The position numbers were made by a program, and so were the translations under genes. From Candidatus Binataceae bacterium (GTDB taxonomy: Bacteria; Desulfobacterota; Binatia; Binatales; Binataceae), in the NCBI GenBank assembly GCA_963798375.1, contig CAWCTG010000032.1, positions 72,232 through 136,231 on the forward strand: a stretch of DNA of 64,000 nucleotides. The letters are read 5' to 3'. The notes under the pieces were generated by a model, which saw only the letters and a program-made list of their open reading frames with translations, ran no database searches and was not told where the DNA came from. Shown here one piece after another: positions 1 through 52,917 of this stretch; the stretch's first letter is position 1, and each line of letters starts with the position of its first letter.

Positions 1-568
1 GAAGCCGCCGGGGCGAATTAATCGCTCGGGCGGTTCAACTTCCGTCCACGTTTTTCGAAGACCCCGGTGGGGCTTACACCGAGTATCGCGAAAGCGCCCT
101 GACATCCTGCTTGCGGCCCATCGAACAGCGCATCGCTGTTTCATCTCCCCGGGGGGTGCGCGGGATGTCAAATCTTCACACGGCACTATCCTCTGCCGGG
201 CCACACCTGTTGCAGGAATGAGTCATTGGAGCTGTATCGGAGTTGCTACGGGCCATCCCGGGTACTGATTTTCGGTAGTGATTTTCAACGCAATTTCGGG
301 GCATAAAAGTTGCTCCTAAACGATTTGGACTAATTTCGCACATTTTGTAGAAGTGTAGTGCTCGGAAACTTCGATTTATTTGCCGTTTGCTTGGAGGGTT
401 CTGCGATGAATCGCCGGCGTAGTCGTGAGCGTGGTCAAGTCCTGGCGTTGGCCACCGCTTCGATAGATGCGCTGATGGGCTCCCTGGCGATCGTTAGATC
501 CACAAGTTCGCGAAACTTGGTCGGACGCGCACCGCGCGCGGGGTGACCGCCGTTTTCGCGGGGGAATC
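1..568. repeat. Copy 1 of duplicated promoter/leader module upstream of the NHL-repeat gene (paralogous to 4141-4682, ~85% identical)
   Basis: Direct comparison of 1-568 with 4141-4682: same hairpin motif (gccggggcgaattaatcgctc[g/c]ggcgg), same leader containing a small ORF, same SD GGGGGAATCGTGATG. Confidence 0.8.
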
Positions 569-3500
569 GTGATGCTCAAATCTGGATTTTGGAAACTCGC
601 AGCGCCGTGCCTGCTGATCATAGCCGCAACCCTGGCGACTCCCTCCATCGCGGGCGACGACGTCGCCGATGTTGTGCTGGGGCAGCCTGACTTTCTGCAC
701 AACCTGCCAAACTTCCCTGACCAATACGCGCTTTACTATCCATTCGCGGTGACGATCGACGCCAGCACAACGCCCAACCGGCTTTATGTCGCGGATGACA
801 GTAACTCGAGGGTGCTGGGCTGGAACGATGTGACGACGTTCGCCAATGGCGCTCCGGCCGACCTGGTCATTGGTCAACCGGACTTTTACTCGACCGCGTG
901 CAACACCGGCGGCGTAAGCGGGAGCAGCCTGTGCTATCCCTACGGGATTTCGGTGGACGCAAGCGGCAACCTCTACGTCGCCGACTATGTCAACAGCCGG
1001 GTACTCGAATACAACACCCCATTCGCCGGATGCGGTTCGTTTCCCTGCGTTGGGGGGTCGGCAAATATGGTGTTCGGGCAGGGCGGCATCTTTACTTCGA
1101 ATACCCCGAATAGCGGCGGGGTGAGTGCGAACAGCCTCGCCTACCCTTTTGGGGTTGCGGTGGACGGAAACGGCAACCTATACGTCGCCGACGCAAGCAA
1201 CAACCGCGTGCTCGAATACAACACGCCGCTTAAGACGGGCACCACCGCCCATCTGGTGTTCGGGCAGGGCGGCATCTTTACTTCGAATACCGCGGATAAC
1301 GGCGGGGTGAGCGCGAACAGCCTCAACGAGCCCTTTGGGGTTGCGGTGGACTCAAGCGGCAATCTCTACGTGGCAGATGACGGCAACAGCCGCTTGCTCG
1401 AGTACAACACGCCGCTTAAGACGGGCACCACCGCCAATCTGGTGCTCGGGCAGCCCAACTTTATCCTCAAGTAACTGCAACAACGGCGGCGGGACGAGCG
1501 CGAGCAGCCTGTGCGCCCCCTACGGGATTACGGTGGACTCAAGCGACAACCTCTATGTCGCTGACTACGGCAACAGCCGGGTGCTGGAATACAACACGCC
1601 GCTCACCACCGACACGACCGCTGATCGCGTCTTCGGGCAGGATGACAGTTTCAGTTCCAGTGACTGCAACTTCGGCGCGACGAGCGCCAGCGCGCACAGC
1701 CTGTGCAGTCCGAGCGGCGTCGCGGTGGACGCCAGCGGCGACCTCTACGTCGCCGACACATCTAACAACCGTGTGCTCAAGTACAACCCTCCGTTCGCAA
1801 CCAACCCCATCGCCGATGTTGCGCTGGGCCAGGCCAACCTCACATACAACGCCGCCAACTTTCCCGACGCGCAAAAACTTGATTCTCCGCAGGGGGTTGC
1901 GATCGACGCCAGCACAACCCCAAACCGGCTTTATGTCGCGGACGTCCAAAACTCGCGGGTGCTGGGCTGGAACGATGTGACGGCGTTCACCAATGGCGCT
2001 CCGGCCGACCTGGTCATTGGTCAGCCGGACCCTTACTCGACTGCGTGCAATTCCGACACCGACGGCGGCAATCCCACCGCCGACGACCTGTGCAACCCCT
2101 ATGGCGTCGCGGTTGACGCCGCCGGCAACCTCTACGTCGCCGACTAAGCCAATAACCGCGTACTCGAATACAACACCCCATTCGCCGAGTGCGGTTCGTT
2201 CCCCTGCGTTGGGGGAGTCCGCCCATCTGGTGTTCGGGCAGGGCGGCAGCTTTACTTCGAATACCGCGAATAATGGCGGGGTGAGCGCGAAAAGCCTCGA
2301 CTCCCCCTGGGGGGTTGCGGTGGACGGAAACGGCAACCTCTACGTCGCCGACACGGTCAATAACCGCGTCCTCGAATACAACGCCCGCTTACGTACGGCA
2401 CCACCGCCCATCTGGTGTTCGGGCAGGGAGGCATCTTTACTTCGAATACCGCGAATAACGGCGGGGTGAGCGCGAACAGCCTCTACTACCCTAATGGCGT
2501 CGCAGTTGATGCTGCCGGCCAGCTCTACGTCGCCGACTTTAGCAACAGCCGCGTCCTCGAATACAACACTCCGCTTACCAGCAGCACCGCCAATGCCGTG
2601 TTCGGGCATGGCAGCTTTAATTCGAATACCCCGAACGACGGCGGGCTGGGCGCTAGCAGCCTCAACTACCCCAGTGGGGTCGTGGTGGATGCAACCGGCA
2701 ACCTCTACGTCGCCGACTACCTCAACAACCGCGTCCTCGAATACAACACTCCGCTTACCAGCAGCGCGGCCAACGCCGTTTTCGGGCAGGGCGACAGCTT
2801 CGACTCGGCTGACTGCAACAACAGCGGGGTGAGCGCGAGCAGCCTGTGCAGCCCCTGGGGGGTTGCGGTGGACGCCGCCGGCAACCTGTACGTCGCCGAC
2901 ACAGCCAACAACCGGGTGCTCAAGTACAACACGCCACTGATTGCGACACCAATACCCACAACTCCGGCACCCACCCCGACCGCGACGGCAACCGCGACCG
3001 CGACGGCAACTGCGACTGCGACGGCAACCGCGACGGCGACGGCAACTGCGACAGCCACAGCGACGCGCACCGCGACCGCGACGGCGACTGCGACAGCCAC
3101 AGCGACCCGCACCGCGACCGCGACGCCGACCGCGACCGCGACGCCGACCAAGACTGCGACGCCGACCGAGACCGCGACGCCGACCGCAACCGCAACGCCA
3201 ACAGTGACCGCCACTAAGACCGCCACTGCGACGGCGACGCCAACCAAGACGGCGACGTCGACCAAGACGGCCACACCAACGTCAACCAAGACGGCGACGC
3301 CGACCAAGACGGCCACACCAACGTCAACCAAGACGGCGACGCCGACCAGGACGGCCACACCAACCACGACGCCGACGCCCGCGATATCGGTGCCGGCGAA
3401 GCTGGGGCTGGGCTACTCGACGCTTGGCAACATGGTGTCCAAGAACCTCAACGTGAGGAACGCGGGGAAGGTGAACTTGTCTATTGAGAGCGTGAGCGTG

Positions 3501-4010
3501 AGCGGGGCCAACTCCGGCGATTTCGCGCCGGGCGCCTCGACCTGTCCGGCGGGCGGGCTTGCGCCCAGGGACAAGTGCACGATCGCGGTGGGATTCACGC
3601 CGAGCGCGCTCGGCCCGCACAGCGCAACGCTGACGCTCCACGACGACGCGGGCACGGGCGCGCAGAACGTGGCGCTGTCGGGGACGGGATTCGCTGACGT
3701 GATGGTATCTCCCGCCAGCATCGCTTACGGCAACGTGAGGCTGAGCGCAAAGAAGAGCAAAGCGCTTATCGTGAGGAACGCGCAGCCGGTGGAGGTGGCG
3801 CTGAGCAAGAGCATCACCGGCTCCGACGTGGGCGACTTTGCGGTGACAGGCGGGACGTGCGCGGCGACGCTAGAGGCCAAGGCGAGCTGCACCTACATCG
3901 TGACGTTCACGCCGCGGGCGGCTGGCCCGCGCACGGCGACGCTCAGCGTCAGGGCGAGCCCCGACCTGCTAAGCCCGCACGCGGTGAGCCTGACCGGCAG
4001 CGGCTCATAG
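569..4010 (+). pseudogene. NHL-repeat secreted protein, disrupted paralog of 4683-8471. Reading frame changes 2->0->1->0; it has a TAC->TAA nonsense codon at 2145-2147 and a +1 insertion near 2213 relative to copy 2. A 94-bp remnant of a further Ig-like domain lies at 4020-4113.
   Basis: Four overlapping ORFs (569-1474, 1335-2147, 1993-2469, 2415-4010) all carry NHL-repeat motifs (LYVAD, NRVLEYNTPL, VFGQGG). The signal peptide MMLKSGFWKLAAPCLLIIAATLATPSIAG matches copy 2. Alignment with copy 2 shows point nonsense and indel differences. Confidence 0.7.
2940..3370 (+). repeat. Imperfect tandem repeat (GCGACN hexamers, then a 42-bp unit repeated twice) encoding a Thr/Ala/Pro-rich linker; absent from paralog 2
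   Basis: Translation gives PTPTATATATATATATATATATATATATRTATATATATATATRTATATPTATATPTKTATPT...; the DNA shows gcgacggcaaccgcgaccgcgacggcaactgcg... periodicity. The 42-bp repeat caccaacgtcaaccaagacggcgacgccgaccaagacggcca occurs twice. Confidence 0.85.
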
Positions 4011-4140
4011 GCGGGCGCGATCAGGCGCGCTCGGTCATTGTGACATTCACGCCGGGCTCGGGATCGATCCGACCAGCCCGCACGCGGTGAGGCTGACGGG
4101 CGCCGGCAAGTAGCCGGCTTGTCTCATCCAGATCACGGAA

Positions 4141-4682
4141 CCGCCGGGGCGAATTAATCGCTCCGGCGGTTCAACTTCCTTCCACGTTTTCGAATACCGG
4201 GTGGGGCTTACACCGAGTATCGCGAAAGCGTCCGAACATCCTGCTCGCGGCCCATCGAACAGCGCATCGCCGGTTCAGCTCCAATGGCGATGATGTCAAA
4301 TCTTAACCCGACGCTATCATCTGTAGGTCAAATATGTCGCAAAATGAGTCATTTTGTATCAAAGTTGCCATCGGCCATCCCACGTGCTGATTTTCAGCGC
4401 AATTTCACGATATAAAACCTGCCTCTGAACGGTTTGACACAATTTAGCATACTTTATATAAGTATAGTGCTCGGAAGCTCGATTCATTTGTCCTCTGCTT
4501 AGCGAGAGATCTGCGATGAATCGCCTGCATAGTCATGAGCATGGTCAAGTCCTGGCGCTGGCCGCCGCTTCGATAGAGGCGCTGATCGGCTCCCTGGCGA
4601 TCGTTCCGTCCACAGGTTCACGAAACTCTGTCGGACGCGCGCCGGGCGCAGCAGCGACCGCGGCTTTCCGGGGGGAATCGTG
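4141..4682. repeat. Copy 2 of duplicated promoter/leader module upstream of the intact NHL-repeat gene
   Basis: ~85% nucleotide identity to 1-568. Confidence 0.8.
4434..4462 (+). promoter_or_regulatory. Candidate sigma-70 promoter TTGACA-N17-TATAAG for the NHL-repeat gene (about 220 nt of leader follows)
   Basis: Near-consensus -35 and -10 hexamers with a 17-nt spacer in an AT-rich patch. Copy 1 has the weaker TTGGAC-N17-TAGAAG at 325-353. Confidence 0.4.
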
Positions 4683-4683
4683 A
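4516..4683 (+). CDS. Conserved 55-codon upstream ORF in the leader. Its TGA overlaps the ATG of the NHL gene (TGATG). The copy-1 homolog is at 406-546.
   Basis: ORF MNRLHSHEHGQVLALAAASIEALIGSLAIVPSTGSRNSVGRAP... is conserved in both leader copies (MNRRRSRERGQVLALATASIDALMGSLAIV...). Copy 1 has a GGAGGG SD. The ORF could still be non-coding conserved leader. Confidence 0.3.
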   Translation: MNRLHSHEHGQVLALAAASIEALIGSLAIVPSTGSRNSVGRAPGAAATAAFRGES

Positions 4684-7600
4684 TGCCCAAATCTGGATTT
4701 TGGAAACTCACAGCGCTGTGCCTGCTGATCATCGCCACCGCCCTGGCGACTCCCTCCGTCGCGGGCGACGGCAACGCCGACATTGTGCTGGGTCAGGCCA
4801 ACTTCACATACTACGCCGCCAACTTTCCCGACGCGCGCAAACTTAATTCTCCGCAGGGGGTTGCGATCGACGCCAACACAACCCCAAACCGGCTTTATGT
4901 CGCGGACGTCTACAACTCGAGGGTGCTGGGCTGGAAGGATGTGACGGCGTTCACCAATGGCGCGCCGGCCGACCTGGTCATTGGTCAGCCGGACTCTTAC
5001 TCGACTGCGTGCAATTCTGACACCGGCGGAGGCAATCCCACCGACGACGATTTGTGCAACCCCTATGGCGTCGCAGTTGATGCCGCCGGCAACCTCTACG
5101 TCGCCGACTACACCAACAACCGCGTGCTCGTATACACCACCCCATTCGCTGGCTGCAGTTCGTTCCCCTGCGTTGGGGGGTCCGCCAATATGGTGTTCGG
5201 GCAAGGCGGCAGCTTTACTTCGAATACCGCGAATAAGGGCGGCGAGCCGAGCGCGAACAACCTCAACTCCCCCTGGGGGGTTGCGGTGGACGCAAACGGC
5301 AACCTCTACGTCGCGGACGCAAGCAACAACCGCGTGCTCGAATACAACACTCCGCTGACTCTAACCTCGACCCCCGGCAGCGGCGACACCACCGCGGACA
5401 TCGTGTTCGGGCAGGGCGGCTTCGGCTCGAATAGACTAAACGACGGCGGGCTGGGCGCGACCAGCCTGTACCTTCCCGTTGGTGTTGCGGTGGACGCAAG
5501 CGGCGACCTCTACGTCGCCGACAGCGAGAACAACCGCGTGCTCGAATACAACACCCCAATCGCGGGATGCGGTGGTTCGTTCCCCTGCATTGGGGGGGCC
5601 GCCAATATGGTGTTCGGGCAGGGCGGTTTCGACTCGAAGACCCCGAACAACGGCGGGCTGAGCGCGAGCAGCCTCAACTACCCCCGCGGGATCGCGGTGG
5701 ACGCAAGCGGCGACCTCTACATCGCGGACTTTTTAAACAACCGCGTGCTCGAATACAACACCCCACTCGCCGGATGCGGCGGTTCGTTCCCCTGCGTTGG
5801 GGGATCCGCCAATCTGGTCTTCGGGCAGGGCGGCAGCTTCGGCTCGGCTGCGTGCAATTCCGACACCGGCGGAGGCGCTCCCACCGCCAATGACCTGTGC
5901 AACCCCTGGGGAGTTGCGGCGGACGCAAGCGGCAACCTCTACGTAGCCGACACCTCCAACAACCGAGTGCTCGAGTACGACACCGCGCTTGCACCCAATA
6001 TCACTGCCGATGTTGTGCTGGGGCAGCCTGACTTTCTGCACAACCAGCCAAACTTCCCTGACCAATCCTCGCTTGACAATCCATCCGCGGTCACGATCGA
6101 CACCAGCGGAGCGAAAACCCACCTTTATGTCGCGGACCCCAGCAATTCGAGGGTGCTGGGCTGGAACGATGTGACGGCGTTCAGCAATGGCGCTCCGGCC
6201 GACCTGGTCATTGGTCAGCCGGACGCGTACACGATTGCGTGCAATTCCGACACCGACGGAGGCAATCCCACCGACGACGATTTGTGCAACCCCTATGGCG
6301 TCGCGGTTGATGCCGCCGGCAACCTCTACGTCGCGGACGCAAGCAACAACCGGGTGCTTGAATACACCACCCCATTCGCGGAGTGCGGTTCGTTCCCGTG
6401 CGTTGGGGGGTCCGCCAATCTGGTGTTCGGGCAGGGCGGCAGCTTCACCTCGGCCGGGTGCAATTCCGACGCCGAGGGAGGCAATCCCACCGCCGCCGAC
6501 CTGTGTTATCCATCTGGCACCGCAGTTGACGCCGCCGGCAACCTCTACATCGCCGACGCAAGCAACAACCGCGTGCTCGAATACAACGCACCTCTTACAA
6601 ACGGCGCCAGCGCCAACATGGTGTTCGGGCAGGGCGGCAGCTTTACTTCGAATACCGAAAATAAGGGCGGAGTGAGCAAGAAAAGCCTCAGCTACCCCTC
6701 TGGGGTTGCGGTGGACTCAACCGGCAACCTCTACGTCGCCGACTCTAACAACAGCCGCGTGCTCGAATACAACACTCCGCTTACGAACGTGAACGGCACC
6801 ACCGCCAATATGGTGTTCGGGCAGGACAGCACCTTCACCTGGGTTGGGTGCAATTCCCACACCACTGGAAGCAATCCCAGCGCCAAAAACCTGTGTTACC
6901 CCAATAGCGTCGCAGTTGATGCTGCCGGCAACCTCTACGTCGCGGACAGCGGCAACAACCGGGTGCTCGAGTACAACACGCCGCTCACCATCGGCACGAC
7001 CGCTGATCGCGTCTTCGGGCAGGGTGACAGTTTCACTTCCGGCCTTTGCAACTTCGGCGCGACGAGCGCCAGCGCGGACAGTCTATGCAATCCGAGTGCT
7101 GCCGCGTTGGACATCACCACCGGCCACCTCTACATCGCCGACACATCTAACAACCGTGTGCTCGAGTACGACGATTCGCTGCCTGCGGAGCCTACCTCGG
7201 TGTCGGTGACTGCTTCGTTCGCATTCGGTAGCTCGCCGGTTGGGGACACGGCCAGCAGGACTATCACGGTTGCAAACACCGGCACGAACCCGCTGTTCAT
7301 CGGCAGCGTTACCTCGTCCGACCAGGCTGAATATGCGGTCACCGGAGCGGGGACATGCGGTGCGATTCCCGTGACGGTCGCGCCCAAGACGTCCTGCACG
7401 CTGGGAGTCGCATTCACGCCAAACGCGGCCGGTTTGCACAGCGCAACGCTTTCGATCAACGATAACACCGCGACCAGCCCGCAGCACGTGGCGCTTAGCG
7501 GCACCGGCACGGTTGACCTGACGGTTACGCCCACCAGCTACGCATTCGGCGACGTCAAGGATGGCTCCAAGGCGATCAAGGCGATCGTCGTGCACAATTA

Positions 7601-8471
7601 TCGGAGCAACTCGGTTTCGCTCAGAGAAGGCTTCGGCGGGTCGAACCCCGACGACTTCAGCATCACGGGCGGCACCTGCACCTCGAGGCTGGCGGCCAAG
7701 ACCGCTTGTACGCTGATTGTCACTTTTGCTCCGAGCGCAGTGGGCACGGAATCGGCGACCATGACGGTTACGGACAGCCCCGATTCGCTGGGTCCGTACA
7801 CGGTTTCATTCAGCGCGTCGGCAACCATACCGGAATCCGTCTCTCCGACCAGCCTGCATTATGCAGACGTCTACCAGACCGCCTCCAAGACGCTGAACCT
7901 CACGCTCACCAACCATGCCACCAGCTCGATCACCCTGACCGGAACGACCATCGGCGGTGCCAACGCGGGAGACTTCGCAGTGACGGGCGGCGGGACCTGC
8001 ACCGGCTCGCTGGCGGCCTCGTCGAGTTGCACCTACGCGGTGACATTCACGCCCCGCACCGAGGCGGCGGAGAGCGGCACGCTTTCAATCGGGGTTGCGC
8101 AAGACCCCAATGGCGGTCCCCCGGCAGTCGCGCTTAGCGGAACCGGATTGGTGCCAGTGAGGGTAGTTCCGGCAAGCATCGCTTTCGGCACCATCGCGTC
8201 GGGCCATTCCTCACCAAACAGGACCGTGACAGTGATCAACGACGGCGCGGCGGTTTCGTTGAGCGAAAGCGTCGGCGGTGCCAACCCGGGCGACTTCGCG
8301 GTGACGGGCGGGAGCTGCGGCGCGTCGCTGGCGGGCGCTGGCGCTTCGTGCACGTACACGATGAAGTTCACGCCGAGCATCGTTGGAGCGGAGAGCGCGA
8401 CGCTTGGGGTCAGTGCGGTCGGCGACGGGGCCAGCCCGCACAATGTGAGCCTCTCGGGGACCGGCTCTTGA
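4683..8471 (+). CDS. Secreted NHL-repeat protein (~1262 aa). It has many NHL blades followed by five C-terminal Ig-like/ASH-like beta-sandwich domains (DFAVTGGTC...SCT..VTFTP...ATL...LSGTG).
   Basis: Signal peptide MMPKSGFWKLTALCLLIIATALATPSVAG. Repeated NHL motifs (LYVAD..NNRVLEY, VFGQGG) occur more than 15 times. The C-terminal ALSGTG-terminated domains repeat five times. Confidence 0.85.
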   Translation: MPKSGFWKLTALCLLIIATALATPSVAGDGNADIVLGQANFTYYAANFPDARKLNSPQGVAIDANTTPNRLYVADVYNSRVLGWKDVTAFTNGAPADLVIGQPDSYSTACNSDTGGGNPTDDDLCNPYGVAVDAAGNLYVADYTNNRVLVYTTPFAGCSSFPCVGGSANMVFGQGGSFTSNTANKGGEPSANNLNSPWGVAVDANGNLYVADASNNRVLEYNTPLTLTSTPGSGDTTADIVFGQGGFGSNRLNDGGLGATSLYLPVGVAVDASGDLYVADSENNRVLEYNTPIAGCGGSFPCIGGAANMVFGQGGFDSKTPNNGGLSASSLNYPRGIAVDASGDLYIADFLNNRVLEYNTPLAGCGGSFPCVGGSANLVFGQGGSFGSAACNSDTGGGAPTANDLCNPWGVAADASGNLYVADTSNNRVLEYDTALAPNITADVVLGQPDFLHNQPNFPDQSSLDNPSAVTIDTSGAKTHLYVADPSNSRVLGWNDVTAFSNGAPADLVIGQPDAYTIACNSDTDGGNPTDDDLCNPYGVAVDAAGNLYVADASNNRVLEYTTPFAECGSFPCVGGSANLVFGQGGSFTSAGCNSDAEGGNPTAADLCYPSGTAVDAAGNLYIADASNNRVLEYNAPLTNGASANMVFGQGGSFTSNTENKGGVSKKSLSYPSGVAVDSTGNLYVADSNNSRVLEYNTPLTNVNGTTANMVFGQDSTFTWVGCNSHTTGSNPSAKNLCYPNSVAVDAAGNLYVADSGNNRVLEYNTPLTIGTTADRVFGQGDSFTSGLCNFGATSASADSLCNPSAAALDITTGHLYIADTSNNRVLEYDDSLPAEPTSVSVTASFAFGSSPVGDTASRTITVANTGTNPLFIGSVTSSDQAEYAVTGAGTCGAIPVTVAPKTSCTLGVAFTPNAAGLHSATLSINDNTATSPQHVALSGTGTVDLTVTPTSYAFGDVKDGSKAIKAIVVHNYRSNSVSLREGFGGSNPDDFSITGGTCTSRLAAKTACTLIVTFAPSAVGTESATMTVTDSPDSLGPYTVSFSASATIPESVSPTSLHYADVYQTASKTLNLTLTNHATSSITLTGTTIGGANAGDFAVTGGGTCTGSLAASSSCTYAVTFTPRTEAAESGTLSIGVAQDPNGGPPAVALSGTGLVPVRVVPASIAFGTIASGHSSPNRTVTVINDGAAVSLSESVGGANPGDFAVTGGSCGASLAGAGASCTYTMKFTPSIVGAESATLGVSAVGDGASPHNVSLSGTGS

Positions 8472-8513
8472 GCGGCAGGGTGTAGGAGCCCGGTCCCTGC
8501 ACCTGAGTGAGGG

Positions 8514-8564
8514 AGAGAATCGGCGTCGCCATGTGAGTTTGCTCCATGTGCGGGCGATTCTCTC
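8514..8564. terminator. 10-bp perfect inverted repeat (GAGAGAATCG...CGATTCTCTC) between convergent genes; candidate bidirectional terminator or structured element
   Basis: Inverted repeat seen directly at 8514-8523 and 8555-8564 with a 31-nt loop, between the stop of the NHL gene (8471) and the stop of the DUF2231 gene (8619). Confidence 0.3.
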
Positions 8565-8618
8565 ATCGAGGTTTACAGCCGGCACCGCGCCCATCGACGA
8601 GCTTCCGCAAACCCCCTT

Positions 8619-9101
8619 CTATTTCTTGAAATCGATCGGCTGCGGGCAGGCCGAGCCGCCGGCGTTGTAGCCGTAAACCATCTCGCCGCCGAGGTCCGCG
8701 CCCGCCGCTATCAAACCCATGACTGCAATCAGACCGGCGAGAAACACGTAACGTCCCCGCATCGGCATCGGCCGCGCCGCGAGCGCCCACACCGTCAGCA
8801 CGCCCGTCACCACCGACACCGCGACCATCAGATGCTTATGATGGCGCAGCAATTCGTGGCGGACCGATACTGAAACCATCAGGCCGGGCGCCGCATAGAG
8901 ACCGCTCAAAAGCGCCGCCGCCGCGCCAAGCGCGCCCAGCACCAGCATCCAGAGCGCAGTCCACTTAAGCGCTTCGCTCGCGCGAATCGACGCGAGGAAA
9001 TAAAGCAGCGCCGCGCCATAGAGAAACGCGATCGGAAAATGCACCAGCAGGGGATGGATATTCTGCAGGTGCGATGCGCCCGGCAGAACGCGGTCTAGCA
9101 C
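8619..9101 (-). CDS. DUF2231-like integral membrane protein
   Basis: Four predicted TM helices. N-terminal HPLLVHFPIAFL motif typical of DUF2231. Confidence 0.6.
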   Translation of the reverse strand: MLDRVLPGASHLQNIHPLLVHFPIAFLYGAALLYFLASIRASEALKWTALWMLVLGALGAAAALLSGLYAAPGLMVSVSVRHELLRHHKHLMVAVSVVTGVLTVWALAARPMPMRGRYVFLAGLIAVMGLIAAGADLGGEMVYGYNAGGSACPQPIDFKK

Positions 9102-37440: not shown

Positions 37441-39183
37441 ATGAAACTATCGCTCGCTTGTGGATGCTGCAGACCATCAACGTTCAAACGACACCGCGAA
37501 CCAACCGACGCGCCAATTCAGGCCACCCCCGAAGAACTACAGGCGATAAGGCTCCAGCTCGCTGAGATCGAGCAATCGCTCTCGCGCCTATGGGGTCCGA
37601 CAATTTGGAGCCGCACGCCCGAGTGCATCCAGGTTCGCGCCGAAGCCGCCGATCTGATCGACCGGCACTTCGACGGCATCGTCGAGCAGTGGGGAGAAGC
37701 GATAATCGCCCTCATCGACGGCCGCTCCGAACACGACCAGGAAGAGGGCAAAGCCAGTTTGGTCAACGCTCTCATCCGTCTCGTCGATCACCTGCGCGAT
37801 CCCGACGACATTTGCACGTACGTTTATCTGCGCCGGCATTGCCAGGAGGGGATGCTCGCGCGGGCCAAACCGTCGCAGTTCAACACCATCCACATCGCGC
37901 TCAAGCAAATAATTCTCAATCACGTAAAATCTTCAATGACCGGTCCCGCGATGGAACTGGTGCGCGACCTGGTGGTGGCGGCAATCGACGAGCGGCGCCT
38001 GATGGTCTCGCAGTTCTACATCGAATCGCGCGAACGGATGCTGCGCGAATCCGAAGAGAAGTACCGCAACACCATCGACCACGCGCCGGATCCAATGTAT
38101 GAGATCGAAGCGGATACCTGGGTCGTGACCGGGCTGAATGCGGCCGCCCTGCGACTCCATCGAACCGAGGTACCGCCAAAAGGTTGGTATGACCCCGGCC
38201 ATGAAAAGAAGCAGATTATTGGATTTCCGATCACAGATTTCGTACCGCCGGAGTTAAGGCCAAGAGTGATCGAGAGCCTGGAGACGGTTGTGCGCCAGGG
38301 ATCGGCGCAGGCCTCGGAATTTCCGATCGGGCCGCTCTTCTTCGACGTAAACTCCGCGCTCATCACCTACGGCAAGAAGCAATTCATCCAGATGATCCTG
38401 CGCGACGTAACGCAGCGGCGCGACATGCTCGACTCGCTGATCAAGGCCGAGCGATTGGCCGCGGCGGGCACCTTCGCGGCGGGCGTGGCGCATGAGGTGA
38501 ACAACCCGCTGGCGTCGATCTCATCGCTGGTTCAATCCATCCTGACCGGCGAGAACGACCCCCAGCGGCGCACCACCCTGCACACCATCCTGTCCCAGAT
38601 CACGCGCATCTCGAGCACGCTCAAGGACCTGGTGAATTTCGCGCGACCCACCACCGCGCAACGCAAACCGGTTGACGTCAACGGGCTGATCGCCGAGACG
38701 CTGCGGCTCATCACCTACAACAAACGCTTCAGCGGCATCCAGATCGAACCCATTCTTGCTCCCGATCTGCGCCGCGCGTTCGCCGACGACAACGAAATTC
38801 AGCAGGTGCTGCTCAATCTGCTCTTCAACGCCGCCGACGCCTCCCCCGCCGAGGGCGCCGTGATCAAAGTGATCACCGAGAACCAGCGCGCCGGACAGGG
38901 CGCGGACAAATCGGGCCGGGTGGTTATCAAGGTGGTTGACAACGGCATCGGAATCCCGCGCGAACATCTGGAACGCGTGTTCGATCCATTCTTTACCACC
39001 AAGCCCGCGGGCGCCGGGGTCGGACTGGGACTGTCGCTATGCCAGCGCATGATCCTGTCCAATCAGGGCACCATTCGCGTTGACAGCGAGGTCGGCCGCG
39101 GCACCTCCGTCACCGTCACGCTGGCGGCGGGCGCCCAGGATTCCGAACGCGCGGAACAGGCGGCGAGCATGGCCGCGTCTTGA
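37441..39183 (+). CDS. PAS-domain sensor histidine kinase
   Basis: H-box HEVNNPLASI; HATPase motifs DNGIGIP and GLGLSL. Confidence 0.8.
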   Translation: MKLSLACGCCRPSTFKRHREPTDAPIQATPEELQAIRLQLAEIEQSLSRLWGPTIWSRTPECIQVRAEAADLIDRHFDGIVEQWGEAIIALIDGRSEHDQEEGKASLVNALIRLVDHLRDPDDICTYVYLRRHCQEGMLARAKPSQFNTIHIALKQIILNHVKSSMTGPAMELVRDLVVAAIDERRLMVSQFYIESRERMLRESEEKYRNTIDHAPDPMYEIEADTWVVTGLNAAALRLHRTEVPPKGWYDPGHEKKQIIGFPITDFVPPELRPRVIESLETVVRQGSAQASEFPIGPLFFDVNSALITYGKKQFIQMILRDVTQRRDMLDSLIKAERLAAAGTFAAGVAHEVNNPLASISSLVQSILTGENDPQRRTTLHTILSQITRISSTLKDLVNFARPTTAQRKPVDVNGLIAETLRLITYNKRFSGIQIEPILAPDLRRAFADDNEIQQVLLNLLFNAADASPAEGAVIKVITENQRAGQGADKSGRVVIKVVDNGIGIPREHLERVFDPFFTTKPAGAGVGLGLSLCQRMILSNQGTIRVDSEVGRGTSVTVTLAAGAQDSERAEQAASMAAS

Positions 39184-39196
39184 GAATCGAAATGCG

Positions 39197-40621
39197 ATGA
39201 ACAACGACGCTTCATGGACCGCACAGGAACGCGGACCTTACCGGCTGCTGATCGTCGAAGACGAACCCTTGATGCGCTCGATCATCGTGCAGCTCGCGCG
39301 CAGCGAAGGCTACGAGGTAATGGAGGCGCCGGCCGCGGAGGTCGCGCTGCACATCTTCGAAAAAGAAAAAATCGATCTCGCGATTCTCGACCTTAACCTG
39401 ACCAGCGGCGGCAACGGACTCGATCTGCTCCGCAAAATGCGCGAACTCGACCCCGAGGTGATGGGAATAATCGTCACCGCCTACGCCAGCGTCGAGTCAG
39501 CCGTCGAGGCGCTGCACCAGGGCGCTTACGATTACATCACCAAGCCGTTTGCGAACGATCATCTGAAAAAGGTGATGCGCAACGCGCTCGAGGGCAAGGC
39601 GCTGTTCAGGGAAAACCGTTTTCTGCGCCAGGAACTGCGCGAGAAGTATCGCTTCGAGAGCATCATCGGCAAAAGCGACGCCATCGAAAGCGTGTTCCGC
39701 GTCATGGAAAAAGTCGCGCGCACCGACACCAGCGTGTTGATCACCGGCGACTCCGGCACCGGCAAGGAACTGGTGGCCCGCGCGATTCATTTCAGCTCCG
39801 AGCGCGCCAGCAACCGCTTCCTGCCGATCAATTGCGGCGCGCTGCCCGAGAACCTGCTCGAGAGCGAACTGTTCGGCTACAAACGCGGCGCATTCACCGG
39901 CGCCGGGCAGGACAAGGTCGGCCTGCTCAAGGCCGCCGACAAAGGCACCGTCCTGCTCGACGAGATTGGCGAGTTGCCGCTCGCGCTGCAGGTCAAACTG
40001 CTGCGCGCGCTTCAGGAGCGCGAGGTCTATCCGCTTGGCGCCAACGATCCGGTGGCGTTCGACGTGCGCGTGCTGTGCGCCACCAATCGCAACCTCGAAA
40101 GCGAAGTCAAGGCCGGCCGCTTCCGCGAGGAACTGCTCTACCGAATCAACGTCATCAACATCAATCTTCCCGGTTTGCGCGAGCGCCAGGACGATATTCC
40201 CCTGCTCGCCAACCATTTCCTGCGCAAGTACGAAAAGTCGATGTCGCGAACAGCGATGCGCTTTTCCAAAGGCGCGATGCGCCTGCTCATCAACTACGCC
40301 TGGCCGGGCAACGTCCGGGAGCTCGAAAACGCCGTCGAGCGCGCCGCCATTCTGGCCGAGACCGACGTCATCCACTCGCACGATTTGCCTGACAAGCTGC
40401 GCAGCACGTCGCCCGTGATGGCGAGTGTCGAGAACCCCGGCCTCACGCTCGAGGAGCTTGAGCGCGAGCATATCAAACTCGTGCTCGACAGAGTCGAAAA
40501 CGACAAGGTGAAGGCCGCGCAGGTGCTCGGGATTCACCTCTCGACGCTCTATCGCAAGGTCCAGCGTTACCACCTCGACGGCGACATCCCCGTGCATCAG
40601 GAGCCTGCGCGCTCGGCGTGA
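39197..40621 (+). CDS. Sigma-54-dependent response regulator (NtrC family: REC + AAA+ + HTH)
   Basis: [11 protein letters not shown]...; Walker [16 protein letters not shown]; GAFTGA motif ([15 protein letters not shown]); C-terminal HTH. Confidence 0.9.
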
Positions 40622-42337: not shown

Positions 42338-43395
42338 TTGCCGACGGCGGGCGCCCGAAATGGAGACGGCAATATGGAGGGGGAACGCAGCTCGCGAAAG
42401 TTTTGGGCAGGTCTTTTGGTGGCGCTGGTCGCGTTTGGAATCGCCTCCCTGGTTTCATCGCCCCCCGCAATCGGCATGGAAGGCACCCTGCTTTCCCAAG
42501 CCACAGGATCGGGGACCCGGCTACCGCCGGGCTATGTCCATAATGACACCTGCACCAGTTGCCATGATGTATCGGTCAAGTCCTTCCGCAAGACAATGAT
42601 GGGCCATCTTATGATGGGCCAGCCGCGCGACGAGGAGGAAGGCCTCGCGTGCCAGGCCTGTCATGGTCCCGGCCGCGAGCATCTACGCCATCCGAGCAAG
42701 CCGTCGCCGGGATTTCTGAGTTTTCGCGAGACCACCTTCACCGACATCAAGATTGAGAACGACCGGTGCCTCGCATGCCATCAAAACGGCGAGCGCGGGT
42801 TCTGGCGAGCCAGCGCCCACGCCGAGCGCGGCATTCGATGCGTTGATTGCCACGCCGTGATGTGTCCGGTGACGGCGAGCGCGCTGCCGCAGGCGCAACT
42901 CAAGAAGTCACCGCTTGGCACTGAATTCATCAACCCGTTCGTCGTGACGCGGCCCGAAACGCAGGTCTGCCTGCGCTGCCATCTCGACAAAAAGATGGAA
43001 ATCAATTTGCCGTCGCACATGCCGCTGCGCGAGGGGTTGATGACGTGCACCGACTGCCACAACCCGCACGGCGGACCGTATCAGAAGCAATTGCGGGCGG
43101 CGATGGTCAATGAGGTCTGCTACCGCTGTCATGCCGAAAAGCGCGGGCCGTTCCTCTGGATGCACGCGCCGGTGGCGATGAACTGCCTCAATTGCCATAT
43201 CCCGCACGGCAGCGTCAACCAGCACATGCTGGTGATCAACATGCCGGTGCTCTGCCAGCGCTGCCACATCGGCACCCGTCATCCGAGTGAGCCACAGAGG
43301 GGGGGTCAATTTTCGTGATCAACCAGCAATGCGCCAATTGCCATTCGCAGATACACGGCTCGAGCTCGCCGGGCGGGAGATATTTCACGCGCTGA
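42338..43395 (+). CDS. Periplasmic decaheme c-type cytochrome, MtrA/MtoA/PioA family. The reading frame is broken at the G7 run 43299-43305, which places the tenth CXXCH (CANCHSQIHGS) in the +1 frame.
   Basis: Nine CXXCH motifs in ORF 42338-43318 (CTSCH, CQACH, CLACH, CVDCH, CLRCH, CTDCH, CYRCH, CLNCH, CQRCH). The next frame reads INQQCANCHSQIHGSSSPGGRYFTR*, a typical MtrA-family C-terminus. N-terminal signal/anchor present. Confidence 0.8.
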
Positions 43396-43466
43396 AGCGG
43401 GAGGCAGAGGAACGCACGGCATCGCTGGGCCGCACCGCGTCTTGCAGCCGGCCCGGGAGGAAAGTC

Positions 43467-45722
43467 ATGAACCTGAAGCGGTTGTTAGCCGGATGTGGAA
43501 CGATGGCGCTCGTGTTGTCGATGCTTTCGCCGGCGCTGGCACAGGTCGATTTCGCGCAATTCACAGCGCAGGGTTCGGTCGAGGCCGGCGCCATTCCCCA
43601 GCCTGTCCCTTATACCAATGTCGCGGAGTATCAGCAGTACCGCGATCTGGCGCAGCAGTTCATCGTTCCGCAACTGCAGTTGATCCTGGGCGACAAGGCG
43701 GAGAACTACTACGTCCAGTTCGACGCCATCAACGTCGCGCAAAAGAACCAGATGTATTCGCTGCGCTTCGGCGAGTACGGTCTGCTCGATGTTCAGGCAA
43801 AATTCTTCGAGATTCCACACAACTTCAGCAACGGCATCGCGAGCACGCCGTACAACCAGGAAGGCGGCAACTTCACTCTATCCTCGAAGCCCACTGGTAC
43901 CGGCCCCGCGCTCGATTCCTGGCTGACAGCGAACGCCAAAACGTTCGACATGAGCCTGCTCGAAGGTGTCGCGGACATCGACGTGCGCTATACGCCGACG
44001 CCGTCGCTGACCTTCAGTGCGAACATGGATTACCAGAACCCCACCGGCCAACAGCCATTCGGCGGCTCCTTTCTGTTTGGCACCAGCCCGGGTACTTACA
44101 AAGTGAACGAACTGTTCCTGCCAATCCAGTACTACACCTATAACTTCGGCACCGGCATCGAATACGCGAAAAACGGATGGATGGTGGGTTTCCAGTACCA
44201 GGGGTCCTTCTTCGTCGACGACTACAGCACCCTGACCTGGGACAACCCCCTCAATACCAGCGGAGTAGGCAGCAAATGCGTTGATTCCACCGTTTTCACT
44301 TCCACCTCGCTCACCGGCCCCTGCCAGGGACGGGCAGCCATGTACCCGAACAACCAGGCTCACAACTTCATCGTGAACGGAACGGGTCAGCTTCCATTCA
44401 ACACACACGTGATGGGGAGCCTCGAGTACGGATTCTGGCTCCAGAACGCTCCCTTCATCCCGCTTACGGCCAACAGCAAGTTGCAGCAGTCATTAAGTTC
44501 GGTAGGAGCGCCTAATAGCCTCGGCGGCGACGTGCAGCCTTTCTTTGCCAACTTCACGATCGATAGCAATCCAATCGAACCGCTGGATCTAAAGGCGACC
44601 TATTCCTATTTCGATTACGACAACCTGACGCCGGCGATCACCTTCACAGGTGTTAAGTCGCTGAATGACGTAGCGGACGCGCAGACGCCTTTCACCGCTT
44701 ATCCCTTTGCATTCTCGGAGCAGGACGTCAGCCTCGAGCCAACCTACCGCCTGACTGATACTCTCGCCACACACTTTATGTTCAAGTGGCAGACCAACCA
44801 CAACGGCGGGCTGGAGGTGCTACAGCAGGATCAAACCAGCTACGGACCCGCGCTCGATTGGAACCCATACCCGTGGCTGACTTTCCGGGCGGACTACCAG
44901 CACGCGCACCGCGACTCGCCGGGATACAACAACAACCGCGCCAGCCTGGTCCAGGTGCTTGGCGGGACCCCGGGAGAGATCGAGGAGCTTCAGAGCCTCT
45001 GGCGGTTCGACGAGGCCACGCTCGATGTGAACCAGACCTCGCTCTATGCCTCCGCGCAGCCGATCGAACAACTCACGCTGTTCGCCGCCTTCAATTACGA
45101 CGACTATAACTACCCCAACAGCGACTTCGGCCTGGAGCACACTTCGGACTATTCGCCGTCGGTGGGGGCCAGTTGGGAACCGATGCCAGGCATGCACCTT
45201 TTTAGCGACTACTCCTGGCAGGCGTACGATTGGAACCTATGGTCACAGGACGAGACTACTATTCCGGCGGCGAAGCCTCCGCCTGGAAAAACGAACGCTT
45301 GGGAGGCCAGGGGCCGCAACCAGGGCAACAATATCGATTTCGGCACGGACATCGCGATACCGCCGAATCGCATTCTGCCGCGGCCGTCGCACCTGAAACT
45401 CCAGTACACCTACACGGTTGGCAACAACAGCACCCACCAATCGGGGGCTACCTCGGCCGGGGCGTCAGGGGAGGCGATCGACTATCCCGATGTCGGCAGC
45501 CAGTTCCAAGAGTTGATAATTCAGTACCAGTACGATTTGCTTGACAACCTGGCTATCAACGTCGGCTACTACTTCACTCACTCCAACGAAAACAATTTCA
45601 TGGTGGACAACATGAGGAACTACATGCCGAATGCAAGCGCAAATTCGACATTTCTCGGCAACACCGACATAGCTCCTTACAACGTCAATGTCGCATTCAT
45701 AACCCTGAAGTACAAATTTTAG
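43467..45722 (+). CDS. Large outer-membrane beta-barrel protein (~752 aa), MtrB/MtoB/PioB-like porin partner of the decaheme cytochrome
   Basis: Signal peptide MNLKRLLAGCGTMALVLSMLSPALAQ. Y/N/G/S/T/Q-rich with alternating amphipathic strands. Ends in an aromatic C-terminus ...AFITLKYKF. Sits immediately downstream of the MtrA-like gene. The listed ORF start 43287 is an artefactual upstream extension. Confidence 0.7.
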   Translation: MNLKRLLAGCGTMALVLSMLSPALAQVDFAQFTAQGSVEAGAIPQPVPYTNVAEYQQYRDLAQQFIVPQLQLILGDKAENYYVQFDAINVAQKNQMYSLRFGEYGLLDVQAKFFEIPHNFSNGIASTPYNQEGGNFTLSSKPTGTGPALDSWLTANAKTFDMSLLEGVADIDVRYTPTPSLTFSANMDYQNPTGQQPFGGSFLFGTSPGTYKVNELFLPIQYYTYNFGTGIEYAKNGWMVGFQYQGSFFVDDYSTLTWDNPLNTSGVGSKCVDSTVFTSTSLTGPCQGRAAMYPNNQAHNFIVNGTGQLPFNTHVMGSLEYGFWLQNAPFIPLTANSKLQQSLSSVGAPNSLGGDVQPFFANFTIDSNPIEPLDLKATYSYFDYDNLTPAITFTGVKSLNDVADAQTPFTAYPFAFSEQDVSLEPTYRLTDTLATHFMFKWQTNHNGGLEVLQQDQTSYGPALDWNPYPWLTFRADYQHAHRDSPGYNNNRASLVQVLGGTPGEIEELQSLWRFDEATLDVNQTSLYASAQPIEQLTLFAAFNYDDYNYPNSDFGLEHTSDYSPSVGASWEPMPGMHLFSDYSWQAYDWNLWSQDETTIPAAKPPPGKTNAWEARGRNQGNNIDFGTDIAIPPNRILPRPSHLKLQYTYTVGNNSTHQSGATSAGASGEAIDYPDVGSQFQELIIQYQYDLLDNLAINVGYYFTHSNENNFMVDNMRNYMPNASANSTFLGNTDIAPYNVNVAFITLKYKF

Positions 45723-52368: not shown

Positions 52369-52917
52369 GTGCGGCTAGCCGTGCCCGACGGTAATCGCGC
52401 ACAATTTGCGGTCTCGGAAGCCGGCGAAGTTATCGAGAGCGAACCGCGGCGGAAGTTCCTGGCGCGTCTGTTCTGGGGCGCGATGGCCATTGTCAGCGCC
52501 GCCATCGCGGCGCCCGTCATTTCCTATCTGATTATCCCGCTGTTGCGGCCGGGTGAGTCCAACGATTGGGTAAAGATGGGAAACATCGCCGACCTTCCGC
52601 TCAACCTTCCCCAGCGGCTCGAGGTCGGCCGGCGCGTGGTCGAGGGATGGGAAACGGACGATTCGCAGGTGACGGCCTGGGTGGTGCGGATGCCGGACAA
52701 AATCTACGTTTTCGATCCGCATTGCACGCACTTGGGATGCGCCTACCGATGGGTCGAGCAGGAAAAGCAGTTCTTCTGCCCATGCCATGCCGGCGTATTC
52801 AGCCTAACCGGGCAGGTGGTCAGCGGCCCTCCCCCACGTCCGCTGGACGTTTACGCGCACGAGGTCCGCGAGGGCGCCCTTTATGTGGTCCCGACTCCAA
52901 CTAAGCAAGTGGTTTGA
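52369..52917 (+). CDS. Rieske [2Fe-2S] iron-sulfur protein with twin-arginine signal
   Basis: RRKFLARL Tat motif; Rieske boxes CTHLGC and CPCHAGVF; GTG start directly after the upstream stop. Confidence 0.85.
   Translation: MRLAVPDGNRAQFAVSEAGEVIESEPRRKFLARLFWGAMAIVSAAIAAPVISYLIIPLLRPGESNDWVKMGNIADLPLNLPQRLEVGRRVVEGWETDDSQVTAWVVRMPDKIYVFDPHCTHLGCAYRWVEQEKQFFCPCHAGVFSLTGQVVSGPPPRPLDVYAHEVREGALYVVPTPTKQVV

Follow-up and report, generated by a model that had tools for sequence, protein, structure and literature searches.

The locus lies on a Candidatus Binatus (Binataceae) chromosome, where an S53-peptidase/Ig gene is followed by two NHL-repeat genes, copy 1 and copy 2, within or beside the 64,000-nt stretch of DNA analysed here (hereafter the window). 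The peptidase gene itself is outside the window, its stop codon lying 24 nt upstream of the window start, and three independent contigs (L006, L007 and L009) place it directly 5' of the upstream region of copy 1. It matched Pro-kuma_activ (E = 7.9e-27, residues 63–203) and choice_anch_D (E = 5.2e-39, 133 bits against a cut-off of 45, three stretches), with no catalytic-domain match in Pfam at E ≤ 1e-3, hence the putative catalytic part is placed by its position only. All three genes appear to encode Sec-secreted proteins with a C-terminal array of choice-of-anchor-D Ig-like domains. These domains are positionally homologous, Ig1, Ig2 and Ig3 of copy 2 being nearest to Ig1, Ig2 and Ig3 of the peptidase gene (67, 54 and 49%, respectively). 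The peptidase and NHL proteins share Ig arrays in the same order, which suggests a common module, of the cell-surface or matrix-attachment kind, exchanged among the secreted proteins of the lineage. Annotated neighbouring genes encode a DUF2231 protein, a LysM-like protein, a ROK kinase and TlyA.

The two NHL genes are colinear direct-repeat paralogs in the same orientation (forward strand, as are all features below), and carry both domain families, which bears out the original prediction of tandem paralogs of a secreted NHL protein with Ig-like domains. Window positions 1–1230 and 4138–5356 gave a single colinear blastn match. The signal peptide, also predicted to be shared, is 91% identical between copies at the DNA level, and elsewhere the identity is mosaic, with a 90% patch at 1808–2389 against approximately 80% outside it. 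Read by eye, the signal peptide (MLKSGFWKLAAPCLLIIAATLATPSIA/GD) shows no lipobox; its n-region is basic, its core hydrophobic and its cleavage site A-x-A-like. Each copy possesses 12 LY[VI]AD motifs, one of the marks of its 12 NHL blades, and the blades probably form two runs of six, judging by blade order and the distinctive first blades. A third paralog elsewhere in the genome is 94–99% identical to copy 1 over 1808–2107.

Copy 2 (4680–8471) is one intact ORF starting at 4680 or 4683 (1263 or 1262 aa). It encodes a signal peptide, 12 blades (~4767–7184) and, without an intervening linker, four choice-of-anchor-D Ig-like domains (7191–8468); five had been claimed, but both the alignment and the four choice_anch_D stretches (aa 838–1263, E = 1.1e-62, 209 bits against a cut-off of 45) give four. 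The protein matched Pfam PF01436 (NHL) in 10 stretches (E = 1.1e-90) and TEN_NHL (E = 1.8e-40). An identical copy-2 protein is encoded on L001 and L002, and the part of copy 2 held by L003 is also intact.

Copy 1 (569–4010, TAG stop) encodes the same kind of secreted protein, with its frame broken four times in this assembly. It comprises a signal peptide (569–652), 12 blades (~656–2957), a Thr/Ala/Pro linker found only in this copy (~2958–3383) and two choice-of-anchor-D Ig-like domains (3384–4007, matching Cep192_D4 and ASH), the number originally predicted. These are the equivalents of Ig1 and Ig4, whereas copy 2 has Ig1 to Ig4; Ig-domain number does vary between genes of this mosaic and recombining family, as had been proposed. 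The gene is split over ORFs at 569–1474 (frame 2), 1335–2147 (frame 0), 1993–2469 (frame 1) and 2415–4010 (frame 0), the last of which still matches PF01436 (E = 9.1e-28). When three 1-nt indels are mended and an in-frame TAA is read through, one continuous NHL/Ig protein of 1146 aa results. The asymmetry between an intact copy 2 and a broken copy 1 is what a truly decaying copy 1 would give.

Each NHL gene is preceded by a version of the same upstream module, at 1–568 for copy 1 and, by alignment to it, at 4138–4679 for copy 2. The two are 84% identical in aligned columns (79% with gaps counted), close to the ~85% originally estimated for a co-duplicated module, and one 31-mer occurs twice in the window against zero occurrences expected by chance. 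Module 1 begins with a hairpin and a conserved island, followed by a promoter region that is variable and AT-rich and by a ~210-nt leader; between modules the hairpin and island are 93% identical and the leader 85%. The terminator-like hairpin at 1–36 (fold −23.7 kcal/mol, z −2.9) lies directly downstream of the peptidase gene, 24 nt past its stop in L006, L007 and L009. Its homologue at 4138–4172 is a perfect 15-bp stem with a 5-nt loop (−31.7 kcal/mol, z −4.15). Candidate sigma-70-like promoters were recognised by eye at homologous positions, TTGGAC-N17-TAGAAG at 325–353 and TTGACA-N17-TATAAG at 4434–4462, the latter being the better match to consensus. A consensus promoter scan called neither, in the second case because it accepts a −10 hexamer only if the final base is T. 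The leader of module 1 contains a candidate upstream ORF of 46 aa (406–546), whose ATG and open frame are conserved in eight of eight module sequences, the one from L009 retaining them despite a 3-nt deletion; substitutions were too few for a coding test. A candidate upstream ORF of 55 aa (4516–4683) ends in a TGA that overlaps the GTGATG start of copy 2.

A fragment at ~4011–4118, separating copy 1 from module 2, reveals how the pair arose. Positions 4064–4118 are 94.5% identical over 55 nt to the last codons and stop of the peptidase gene (in L006, L007 and L005), positions 4029–4057 are 93% identical over 29 nt to its penultimate Ig domain, and L005 carries an undeleted version. The fragment is therefore left over from the 3' end of the peptidase gene, with ~360 nt deleted internally. 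A sequence at ~4020–4113 had been noted as an orphan third Ig domain of copy 1; the sequence is there, but its homology to the upstream gene rules out that origin. The colinear direct copies, including non-coding flanks, and the junction scar derived from the other end of the unit are the two marks of tandem duplication, and both are present. A single duplication of ~4.6 kb gave rise to both NHL genes, its unit beginning inside the penultimate Ig domain of the peptidase gene, taking in that gene's stop, the terminator hairpin, promoter and ~210-nt leader, and ending a few bases past the NHL stop. The same module precedes each copy because the unit included the promoter and leader, and the scar of the peptidase tail, marking the left boundary of the unit, sits between copy 1 and module 2. 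The copies then diverged to ~80% identity, and blade-scale recombination, with each other and with the third paralog, remodelled them.

The four lesions of copy 1 fall at distinct sites. Lesion 1 is one extra base at 1463–1465, where the window has TTTATCCTCA and both L009 (TTT-TCCTCA) and L007 (TTTATC-TCA) are in frame; L006 has the window state. As L006 is an independent assembly (~96% identical), this recurrence counts against reading the site as an artefact. Lesion 2, the TAA stop at 2145–2147, stands opposite TAC in copy 2, exactly the TAC to TAA change originally reported; L009 also has TAC, and L006, L007 and the third paralog have GCA. Lesion 3 is one extra base at 2216–2218, the insertion that had been placed near 2213: the window reads GGGGGAGTCC (2211–2220) and copy 2 GGGGGGTCC, the alleles being GGGGGAG-CC in L009 and GGGGG-GTCC in L006, copy 2 and the third paralog. 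Lesion 4 is one missing base at 2383–2385 (AACGC-CCG; window 2380–2387 is AACGCCCG), where L009 and the third paralog have AACGCACCG and L006 has AACATCCCG. It restores the frame shifted by lesion 3. Lesions 1 and 4 thus supply the further frame changes that had been noted.

Copy 1 might be expressed in spite of these lesions, by programmed frameshifting, stop read-through or separate translation of the fragments, a reading that could draw on the +1/−1 pairing of lesions 3 and 4 and on the signal of purifying selection in the downstream frame (below), and on nothing else. We consider it very improbable. Direct reading found no slippery heptamer or long homopolymer at 1463–1465 or 2216–2218, two stop codons lie in the unshifted frame 0 between lesions 3 and 4, the downstream fragments have no signal peptide, and a single gene would need four separate events. 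Recoding sites would furthermore be conserved in close relatives, and these lesions are not.

Comparison with other assemblies instead suggests that the lesions entered during assembly. L009 (GCA_052916145.1), ~99% identical with 25 mismatches over window positions 1–3692, has none of the four and encodes a protein (P0240) in one frame through all four sites; L006 has only lesion 1, and neither lesion 1 nor lesion 2 is present in L007. The window letters at lesions 1 and 3 are exactly what results from combining two in-frame alleles that each lack a different base. Lesions 2, 3 and 4 lie within 2 nt of multi-nucleotide differences between L009 and L006, zones which make up 1.6% of the region, giving a chance of ~4e-6 that all three would fall there. 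At lesions 2 and 3 the third paralog has the alternative allele, and a single metagenome contains both haplotypes, represented by L009 and by the 5' end of L001. In a three-way comparison over 2.4 kb the changes private to the window were one substitution and two indels. Such a pattern could arise if the consensus combined reads of two in-frame alleles, whether from a co-existing haplotype, a near-identical paralog or both. Admixture of a whole second strain should have left such errors in other genes too; none were seen, hence any mixing would be limited to this locus or involve paralogs. The other window genes examined matched their family models over essentially full length, so the lesions are local to the repeat-rich, polymorphic copy 1.

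Selection is also visible across the breaks. Downstream of lesion 1, dN/dS between the window and L006 was 0.15 (P = 5e-8 against neutrality), compared with 1.3 and 2.4 in two out-of-frame controls. Over both propellers of copy 1 it was 0.25 against L006 and 0.35 against L007, and 0.35 for the copy-2 propellers, values that lie well away from the value near 1 of relaxed selection.

The original prediction took copy 1 to be pseudogenised; the frame-disrupting lesions are indeed in the sequence, three 1-nt indels and one TAA, but the absence of all four from L009 and the low dN/dS put the call itself in doubt. A recently inactivated pseudogene, with lesions that are real and polymorphic in the population and intact alleles belonging to other strains, is nonetheless a possibility to be taken seriously, if one we lean against. 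The deposited sequence contains the lesions, the broken ORFs are also the ones recorded for the 427-kb source contig, and the rest of the window is clean. Lesion 1 is common to the window and L006, copy 1 carries different single lesions elsewhere (at 2549 in L009, at 3510 in L001) while copy 2 is intact, and with fewer Ig domains than copy 2 its 3' end has already been remodelled. Yet the set of lesions does not recur in independent sequence of the same lineage, starting with near-identical L009. The positions of three lesions coincide exactly with rare multi-nucleotide polymorphisms, and these lesions shift the sequence towards the other allele, which argues against decay, as independent mutations have no reason to hit polymorphic sites in that direction. 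The ratio of two private indels to one substitution departs strongly from the mutation spectrum normally seen, and the frame shifts of lesions 3 and 4 cancel. A dN/dS of 0.15 was moreover obtained downstream of a frameshift supposedly common to two strains ~4% apart, although on the pseudogene account the divergence could predate inactivation, or gene conversion could have imported sequence from working paralogs.

Some disruption of copy 1 was found in every assembly covering much of it, including a 1-nt deletion at window position 2549 in L009, one at 3510 in L001 and a loss of frame within the linker in L006, which counts against the artefact reading. Copy 1 could be pictured as a hypervariable surface-protein locus, with mosaic haplotypes, some frameshifted, co-existing in near-clonal Binatus populations and kept by paralog recombination while copy 2 is fixed. 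We regard this as unlikely; if true, a secreted NHL propeller would vary across the population both in sequence and in whether it is on or off. A dedicated diversification system acting on copy 1 (a diversity-generating retroelement, shufflon or phase-variable repeats) would fit the clustering of variation (L001 shows 27 differences from the window, 25 of them within 3463–3780) and the short duplicated fragment adjoining the 3' end of copy 1. The locus does not, however, have the features of a retroelement target: substitutions are of all types and not adenine-specific, and the fragment at 4011–4118 is the neighbouring-gene relic. The variant patch (3463–3780) matches the L006 haplotype and is thus allelic, the lesions lie outside simple-sequence tracts, and no reverse transcriptase or recombinase is among the annotated neighbours. 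Such a system is extremely improbable.

Errors of consensus rather than a dead gene remain the most likely source of the four lesions on the sequence comparisons above, in which case the actual genome probably carries a working copy 1. We hold the explanation as a whole, a tandem duplication with later consensus errors in copy 1, with moderate confidence. Its biological weight is small: in Binatia such secreted NHL/Ig proteins form a very large family, to which this ordinary locus contributes another tandem pair. It does suggest that, in contigs derived from metagenomes, a seeming birth-and-death pseudogene should be counted as gene loss only with read support, and the neighbouring-gene relic offers a clean, datable boundary of the duplication.

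Among known systems, the genes resemble bacterial NHL-repeat beta-propeller proteins (PF01436), with the motif LYVAD..N.RVLEY in 12 blades per copy. More than 7,500 database proteins matched at E ≤ 1e-20, many named Candidatus Binatus or Binataceae, and the family has several architectures, of which a double propeller joined to Ig arrays is one. Members are labelled ‘NHL repeat-containing protein’ by NCBI and ‘sugar lactone lactonase YvrE’ by JGI, the latter by automatic annotation only. The C-terminal Ig-like domains are clear members of the choice-of-anchor D group (NCBIfam NF012200; Pfam ASH, Cep192_D4 and HYDIN-type), so named for its occurrence with various C-terminal sorting signals, whereas here the proteins end right after the last Ig domain (SLSGTGS, then stop) with no anchor segment visible by eye. 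Tandem segmental duplication followed by gene conversion is a general phenomenon in bacterial surface-protein families. This host differs in being an uncultured environmental bacterium in which an antigenic or phase-variation role is unsupported, but the direct repeats, co-duplicated regulatory DNA, junction scar, mosaic identity and domain-number variation are all alike. Frameshifted ‘pseudogenes’ produced by consensus error are, finally, a known class of artefact when metagenomes with mixed strains or repeated genes are assembled. Although one lesion, unlike these, recurs in a second assembly, copy 1 resembles the class in having 1-nt indels confined to a repeat-rich, polymorphic gene of an otherwise clean contig, absent from a near-identical assembly and located where alleles differ in adjacent bases.

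At the start of the window, over some 8.5 kb, lie two genes in direct repeat, both on the forward strand. Copy 2 is one ORF from 4680 (GTG) or 4683 (ATG) to 8471, encoding 1263 or 1262 aa, and copy 1 is divided among four ORFs that overlap and use three frames (569–1474, 1335–2147, 1993–2469 and 2415–4010). The ORFs and alignments bear out the original prediction of a paralogous pair. Profile searches matched copy 2 to Pfam NHL (E = 1.1e-90) and also to TEN_NHL, with ASH, Cep192_D4 and HYDIN-type Ig matches at the C-terminus and four stretches of the NCBIfam choice-of-anchor D model (E = 1.1e-62). Each copy has 12 blades ending in LY[VI]AD, organised as two runs of six with a distinctive first blade opening each run, and a typical Sec signal peptide was recognised by eye at the start of both. 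Copy 1 carries a Thr/Ala/Pro linker of ~140 aa (about 2958–3383) and two Ig domains; copy 2 lacks the linker and has four Ig domains, where five had been predicted, according to the choice-of-anchor D stretches and the alignment. The family is very large (>7,500 proteins at E ≤ 1e-20 in a database search), with matches named Candidatus Binatus or Binataceae, and no further paralog was found at 8.5–64 kb when copy 2 was compared with the whole window (tblastn).

The reading frame of copy 1 is broken at four places: an extra base at 1463–1465 (lesion 1), a TAA codon at 2145–2147 (lesion 2), an extra base at 2216–2218 (lesion 3) and a missing base at 2383–2385 (lesion 4). These were located by three-frame translation, alignment to copy 2 and comparison among copy 1's own repeats, and the frame-breaking changes predicted earlier (TAA, extra base, further shifts) are all present in the sequence. 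With the three indels undone and the TAA read through, copy 1 encodes a single uninterrupted protein of 1146 aa, including repaired-frame peptides that cross the lesion sites, such as GQPNFSSSNCNN, LYVADYANNRVLEY and CVGGAAHLVFGQ. An exact-sequence look-up found ORFs 572–1474 and 1533–2147 on record for the 427,101-nt contig, hence the lesions belong to the deposited assembly. A second homolog search, centred on the lesion region, added no near-identical sequence to the proteins P0017 and P0005, and a protein-guided scan of GTDB gave only one distant relative (contig L008, Binataceae, 51% identity).

Three independent contigs reach past the window start: L006 (ENA ERZ25039501, about 96% identical to the window), L007 (GCA_049586255.1, 96.5%) and L009 (GCA_052916145.1, about 99%). 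L009 differs from window positions 1–3692 by 25 mismatches and 6 gaps, maintains one frame through all four lesion sites and encodes P0240, a 752-aa protein in the same 90% cluster as the window ORFs. A 42-nt in-frame length difference separates it from the window in the linker, at 3259–3300. At lesion 1 the window reads TTTATCCTCA, a state shared by L006, with TTT-TCCTCA in L009 and TTTATC-TCA in L007. Lesion 2 is TAA in the window, TAC in L009, and GCA in L006, L007 and a third paralog encoded elsewhere. For lesion 3 the window has GGGGGAGTCC, L009 has GGGGGAG-CC, and L006, copy 2 and the third paralog have GGGGG-GTCC; at lesion 4 the three states are AACGC-CCG (window), AACGCACCG (L009) and AACATCCCG (L006).

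The window sequence at lesions 1 and 3 corresponds exactly to two in-frame alleles combined. Adjacent-base differences between L009 and L006 occur at only six places within 569–2945, zones within 2 nt of these places make up 1.6% of positions, and lesions 2, 3 and 4 fall on three of the six (chance about 4e-6). Private to the window in the three-way comparison are one substitution (2744) and two indels. Downstream of lesion 1, the window and L006 give a dN/dS of 0.15 (26.5 synonymous vs 13.5 non-synonymous differences; neutrality rejected at P = 5e-8), compared with 1.3 and 2.4 when these sites are translated in the two alternative frames; for the copy-2 propellers the value is 0.35. Furthermore, one metagenome contains both haplotypes, as contigs L009 and L001 come from the same assembly: L009 is window-like, and L001 is L006-like over its first 390 nt and then identical to the window. 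Allele unions, adjacent-base sites, dN/dS and mixed haplotypes are marks of a two-allele consensus, in which the second allele may derive from a co-existing haplotype or from cross-mapping reads of a near-identical paralog. On these sequence comparisons we moderately favour an assembly-consensus artefact, not independent mutations, as the source of the copy 1 lesions.

A real, recent and polymorphic inactivation of copy 1 is the less probable explanation, yet one that carries appreciable weight. Lesion 1 also occurs in L006. The L006 assembly is indel-rich, with 68 gap openings in 10 kb relative to the window and several truncated housekeeping genes, yet the same random error is unlikely to have arisen there at exactly this site; as an artefact, lesion 1 would imply that both assemblies either mixed the same alleles or made an error favoured by the local sequence context. 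No assembly with substantial coverage of copy 1 is free of disruption (L009 at 2549, L001 at 3510, L006 within its linker). Copy 2 has no break in the window, in contigs L001 and L002 or in the part carried by contig L003, and none of the remaining window genes is broken. The earlier claim of a pseudogenised first copy is therefore right about the lesions, but a dead gene is doubtful with L009 in frame at all four sites and a dN/dS of 0.15, and should not be accepted without read support. Recoding of copy 1 was rejected: there are no slippery sites, frame 0 stops between lesions 3 and 4, and the lesions are unconserved.

L001 and the window show 27 differences over 6.5 kb, of which 25 lie within 3463–3780, the first Ig domain of copy 1, and most match the L006 haplotype; only 2 bases differ in the 6 kb after this patch, all of copy 2 included. 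Mosaicism at strain level, restricted to copy 1, is evident from the comparison of 3463–3780 with L001 1–390. Between the window and L006, the copy 2 Ig region (7191–8468; dS 0.19, dN 0.089) is far more divergent than the copy 2 propellers (dS 0.047), and it is almost identical in L001, with a single base difference at 8165 and the same encoded protein.

In each of the three contigs (3/3), the module upstream of copy 1 begins 24 nt after the stop of a putative peptidase gene of 1247–1303 aa, whose product combines a pro-kumamolisin (S53 peptidase) activation domain with a long Thr/Ala linker and three choice-of-anchor-D domains. Its linker, like that of copy 1, varies in length (whole protein 1247 aa vs 1303 aa). 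Window positions 4064–4118 are 94.5% identical to the final codons and stop of this gene, and 4029–4057 match the end of its penultimate Ig domain at 93% identity, with ~360 nt deleted between the two parts; the undeleted version is present in the JGI contig L005. Hence the fragment at 4020–4113 exists as predicted, but it matches the 3' end of the peptidase gene and does not originate from a third copy-1 domain. After their stops, copies 1 and 2 have only GCGG in common. As the relic matches the peptidase tail, the duplicated unit began inside the penultimate Ig domain of the peptidase gene, and it ended a few bases past the NHL gene stop. The same elements precede each copy because this unit spanned the peptidase tail to the NHL stop. 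The relic of the adjacent peptidase gene thus marks the duplication boundary.

Positions 1–1907 of L005 (JGI Ga0208686_1017283) run from the copy 1 3' end (96.7% identical to window 3661–4057) through the undeleted peptidase tail and module 1 to the copy 1 5' end. Taken alone, this contig suggested one more NHL copy ahead of the window start, which was ruled out as L006, L007 and L009 show the peptidase gene there. L005 is best read as passing from the copy 1 3' end into the peptidase tail via the shared relic repeat; its arrangement could stem from mis-joining at that repeat, or from a strain that retains the full relic or is arranged differently.

The predicted sharing of an upstream module holds, with 1–568 and 4138–4679 being 84% identical in aligned columns. 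Shared elements are a hairpin, a conserved island (93%), an AT-rich region and a ~210-nt leader (85%). The module 2 hairpin (4138–4172, forward strand) has 15 perfect pairs and a 5-nt loop (-31.7 kcal/mol, z -4.15); it sits 3' of the gene-tail relic with no U-tract directly after it, and its module 1 counterpart (1–36) has a bulge. A promoter/terminator scan gave no more sites than shuffled sequence, so promoter candidates, such as a sigma-70-like TTGACA-N17-TATAAG within the AT-rich region at 4434–4462 on the forward strand, are by-eye inferences only. An Rfam scan of 1–9000 (E ≤ 1) matched no known RNA family to the leaders. Candidate upstream ORFs, both starting MNR, were seen in the conserved leader at 406–546 (46 aa) and 4516–4683 (55 aa), the TGA of the latter overlapping the GTGATG start of copy 2. 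The ATG and open frame are preserved in 8/8 module sequences from 5 assemblies, also across a 3-nt deletion in L009, and substitutions are too few to judge coding status. Exact search with a module 31-mer gave no match in GTDB representative genomes and one contig, L005, in JGI metagenomes.

Copies 1 and 2 are about 80% identical overall, rising to 90% between copy 1 1808–2389 (blades 7–9) and copy 2 4772–5356 (blades 1–3). Each copy-1 propeller opens with a blade that resembles the first blade of the opposite copy-2 propeller, and overall similarity is much the same for all four pairings of propellers (72–74% with gaps). The copies are mosaics, not simple copies. A wholesale propeller swap was rejected, since the exchange is limited to the first blades and the 90% patch. 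Copy-2 Ig1, Ig2 and Ig3 are nearest to peptidase Ig1, Ig2 and Ig3 (67, 54 and 49%, respectively), copy-1 Ig1 is nearest to peptidase Ig1 (55%) and copy-1 Ig2 to copy-2 Ig4 (47%). From these positional similarities, the Ig array is a shared, ordered module whose middle two domains are absent from copy 1. The third paralog, P0001 (1047 aa), maps to an unrelated locus of the genome to which L007 belongs (L010 10001–13144; GCA_049586255.1 JBAVBP010000140.1) and is 94–99% identical to copy 1 over 1808–2107. It combines the copy 1 signal peptide with the copy 2 blade order, a Thr/Ala linker and one Ig domain, and adjoins DDE transposase fragments. The end of the L007 contig switches into third-paralog sequence.

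Elsewhere the window carries ordinary chromosomal genes (xseA, tlyA, ROK kinase, CCA-adding enzyme, pheT and others); the other genes checked gave essentially full-length family-model matches, with thrS and pheS read by eye. A multihaem cytochrome gene with paired CXXCH motifs, followed by an MtrB/PioB-type outer-membrane porin gene (42338–45722), looks like a porin-cytochrome extracellular electron-transfer module. Histidine kinase and sigma-54-dependent response regulator genes lie at 37441–40621, their listed ORFs overlapping by about 100 nt, and a cytochrome b gene with a fused C-terminal cytochrome c domain (578 aa) at 52883–54619. Literature searches on Binatia with NHL, and on 'choice-of-anchor D', found nothing relevant. 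No reverse transcriptase or recombinase was seen among the annotated neighbouring genes. A dedicated diversification system (DGR, shufflon) was rejected, as all substitution types occur and the repeat is a gene relic; the locus holds a genuine tandem pair of secreted NHL/Ig genes, of an unremarkable kind, duplicated together with promoter and leader.
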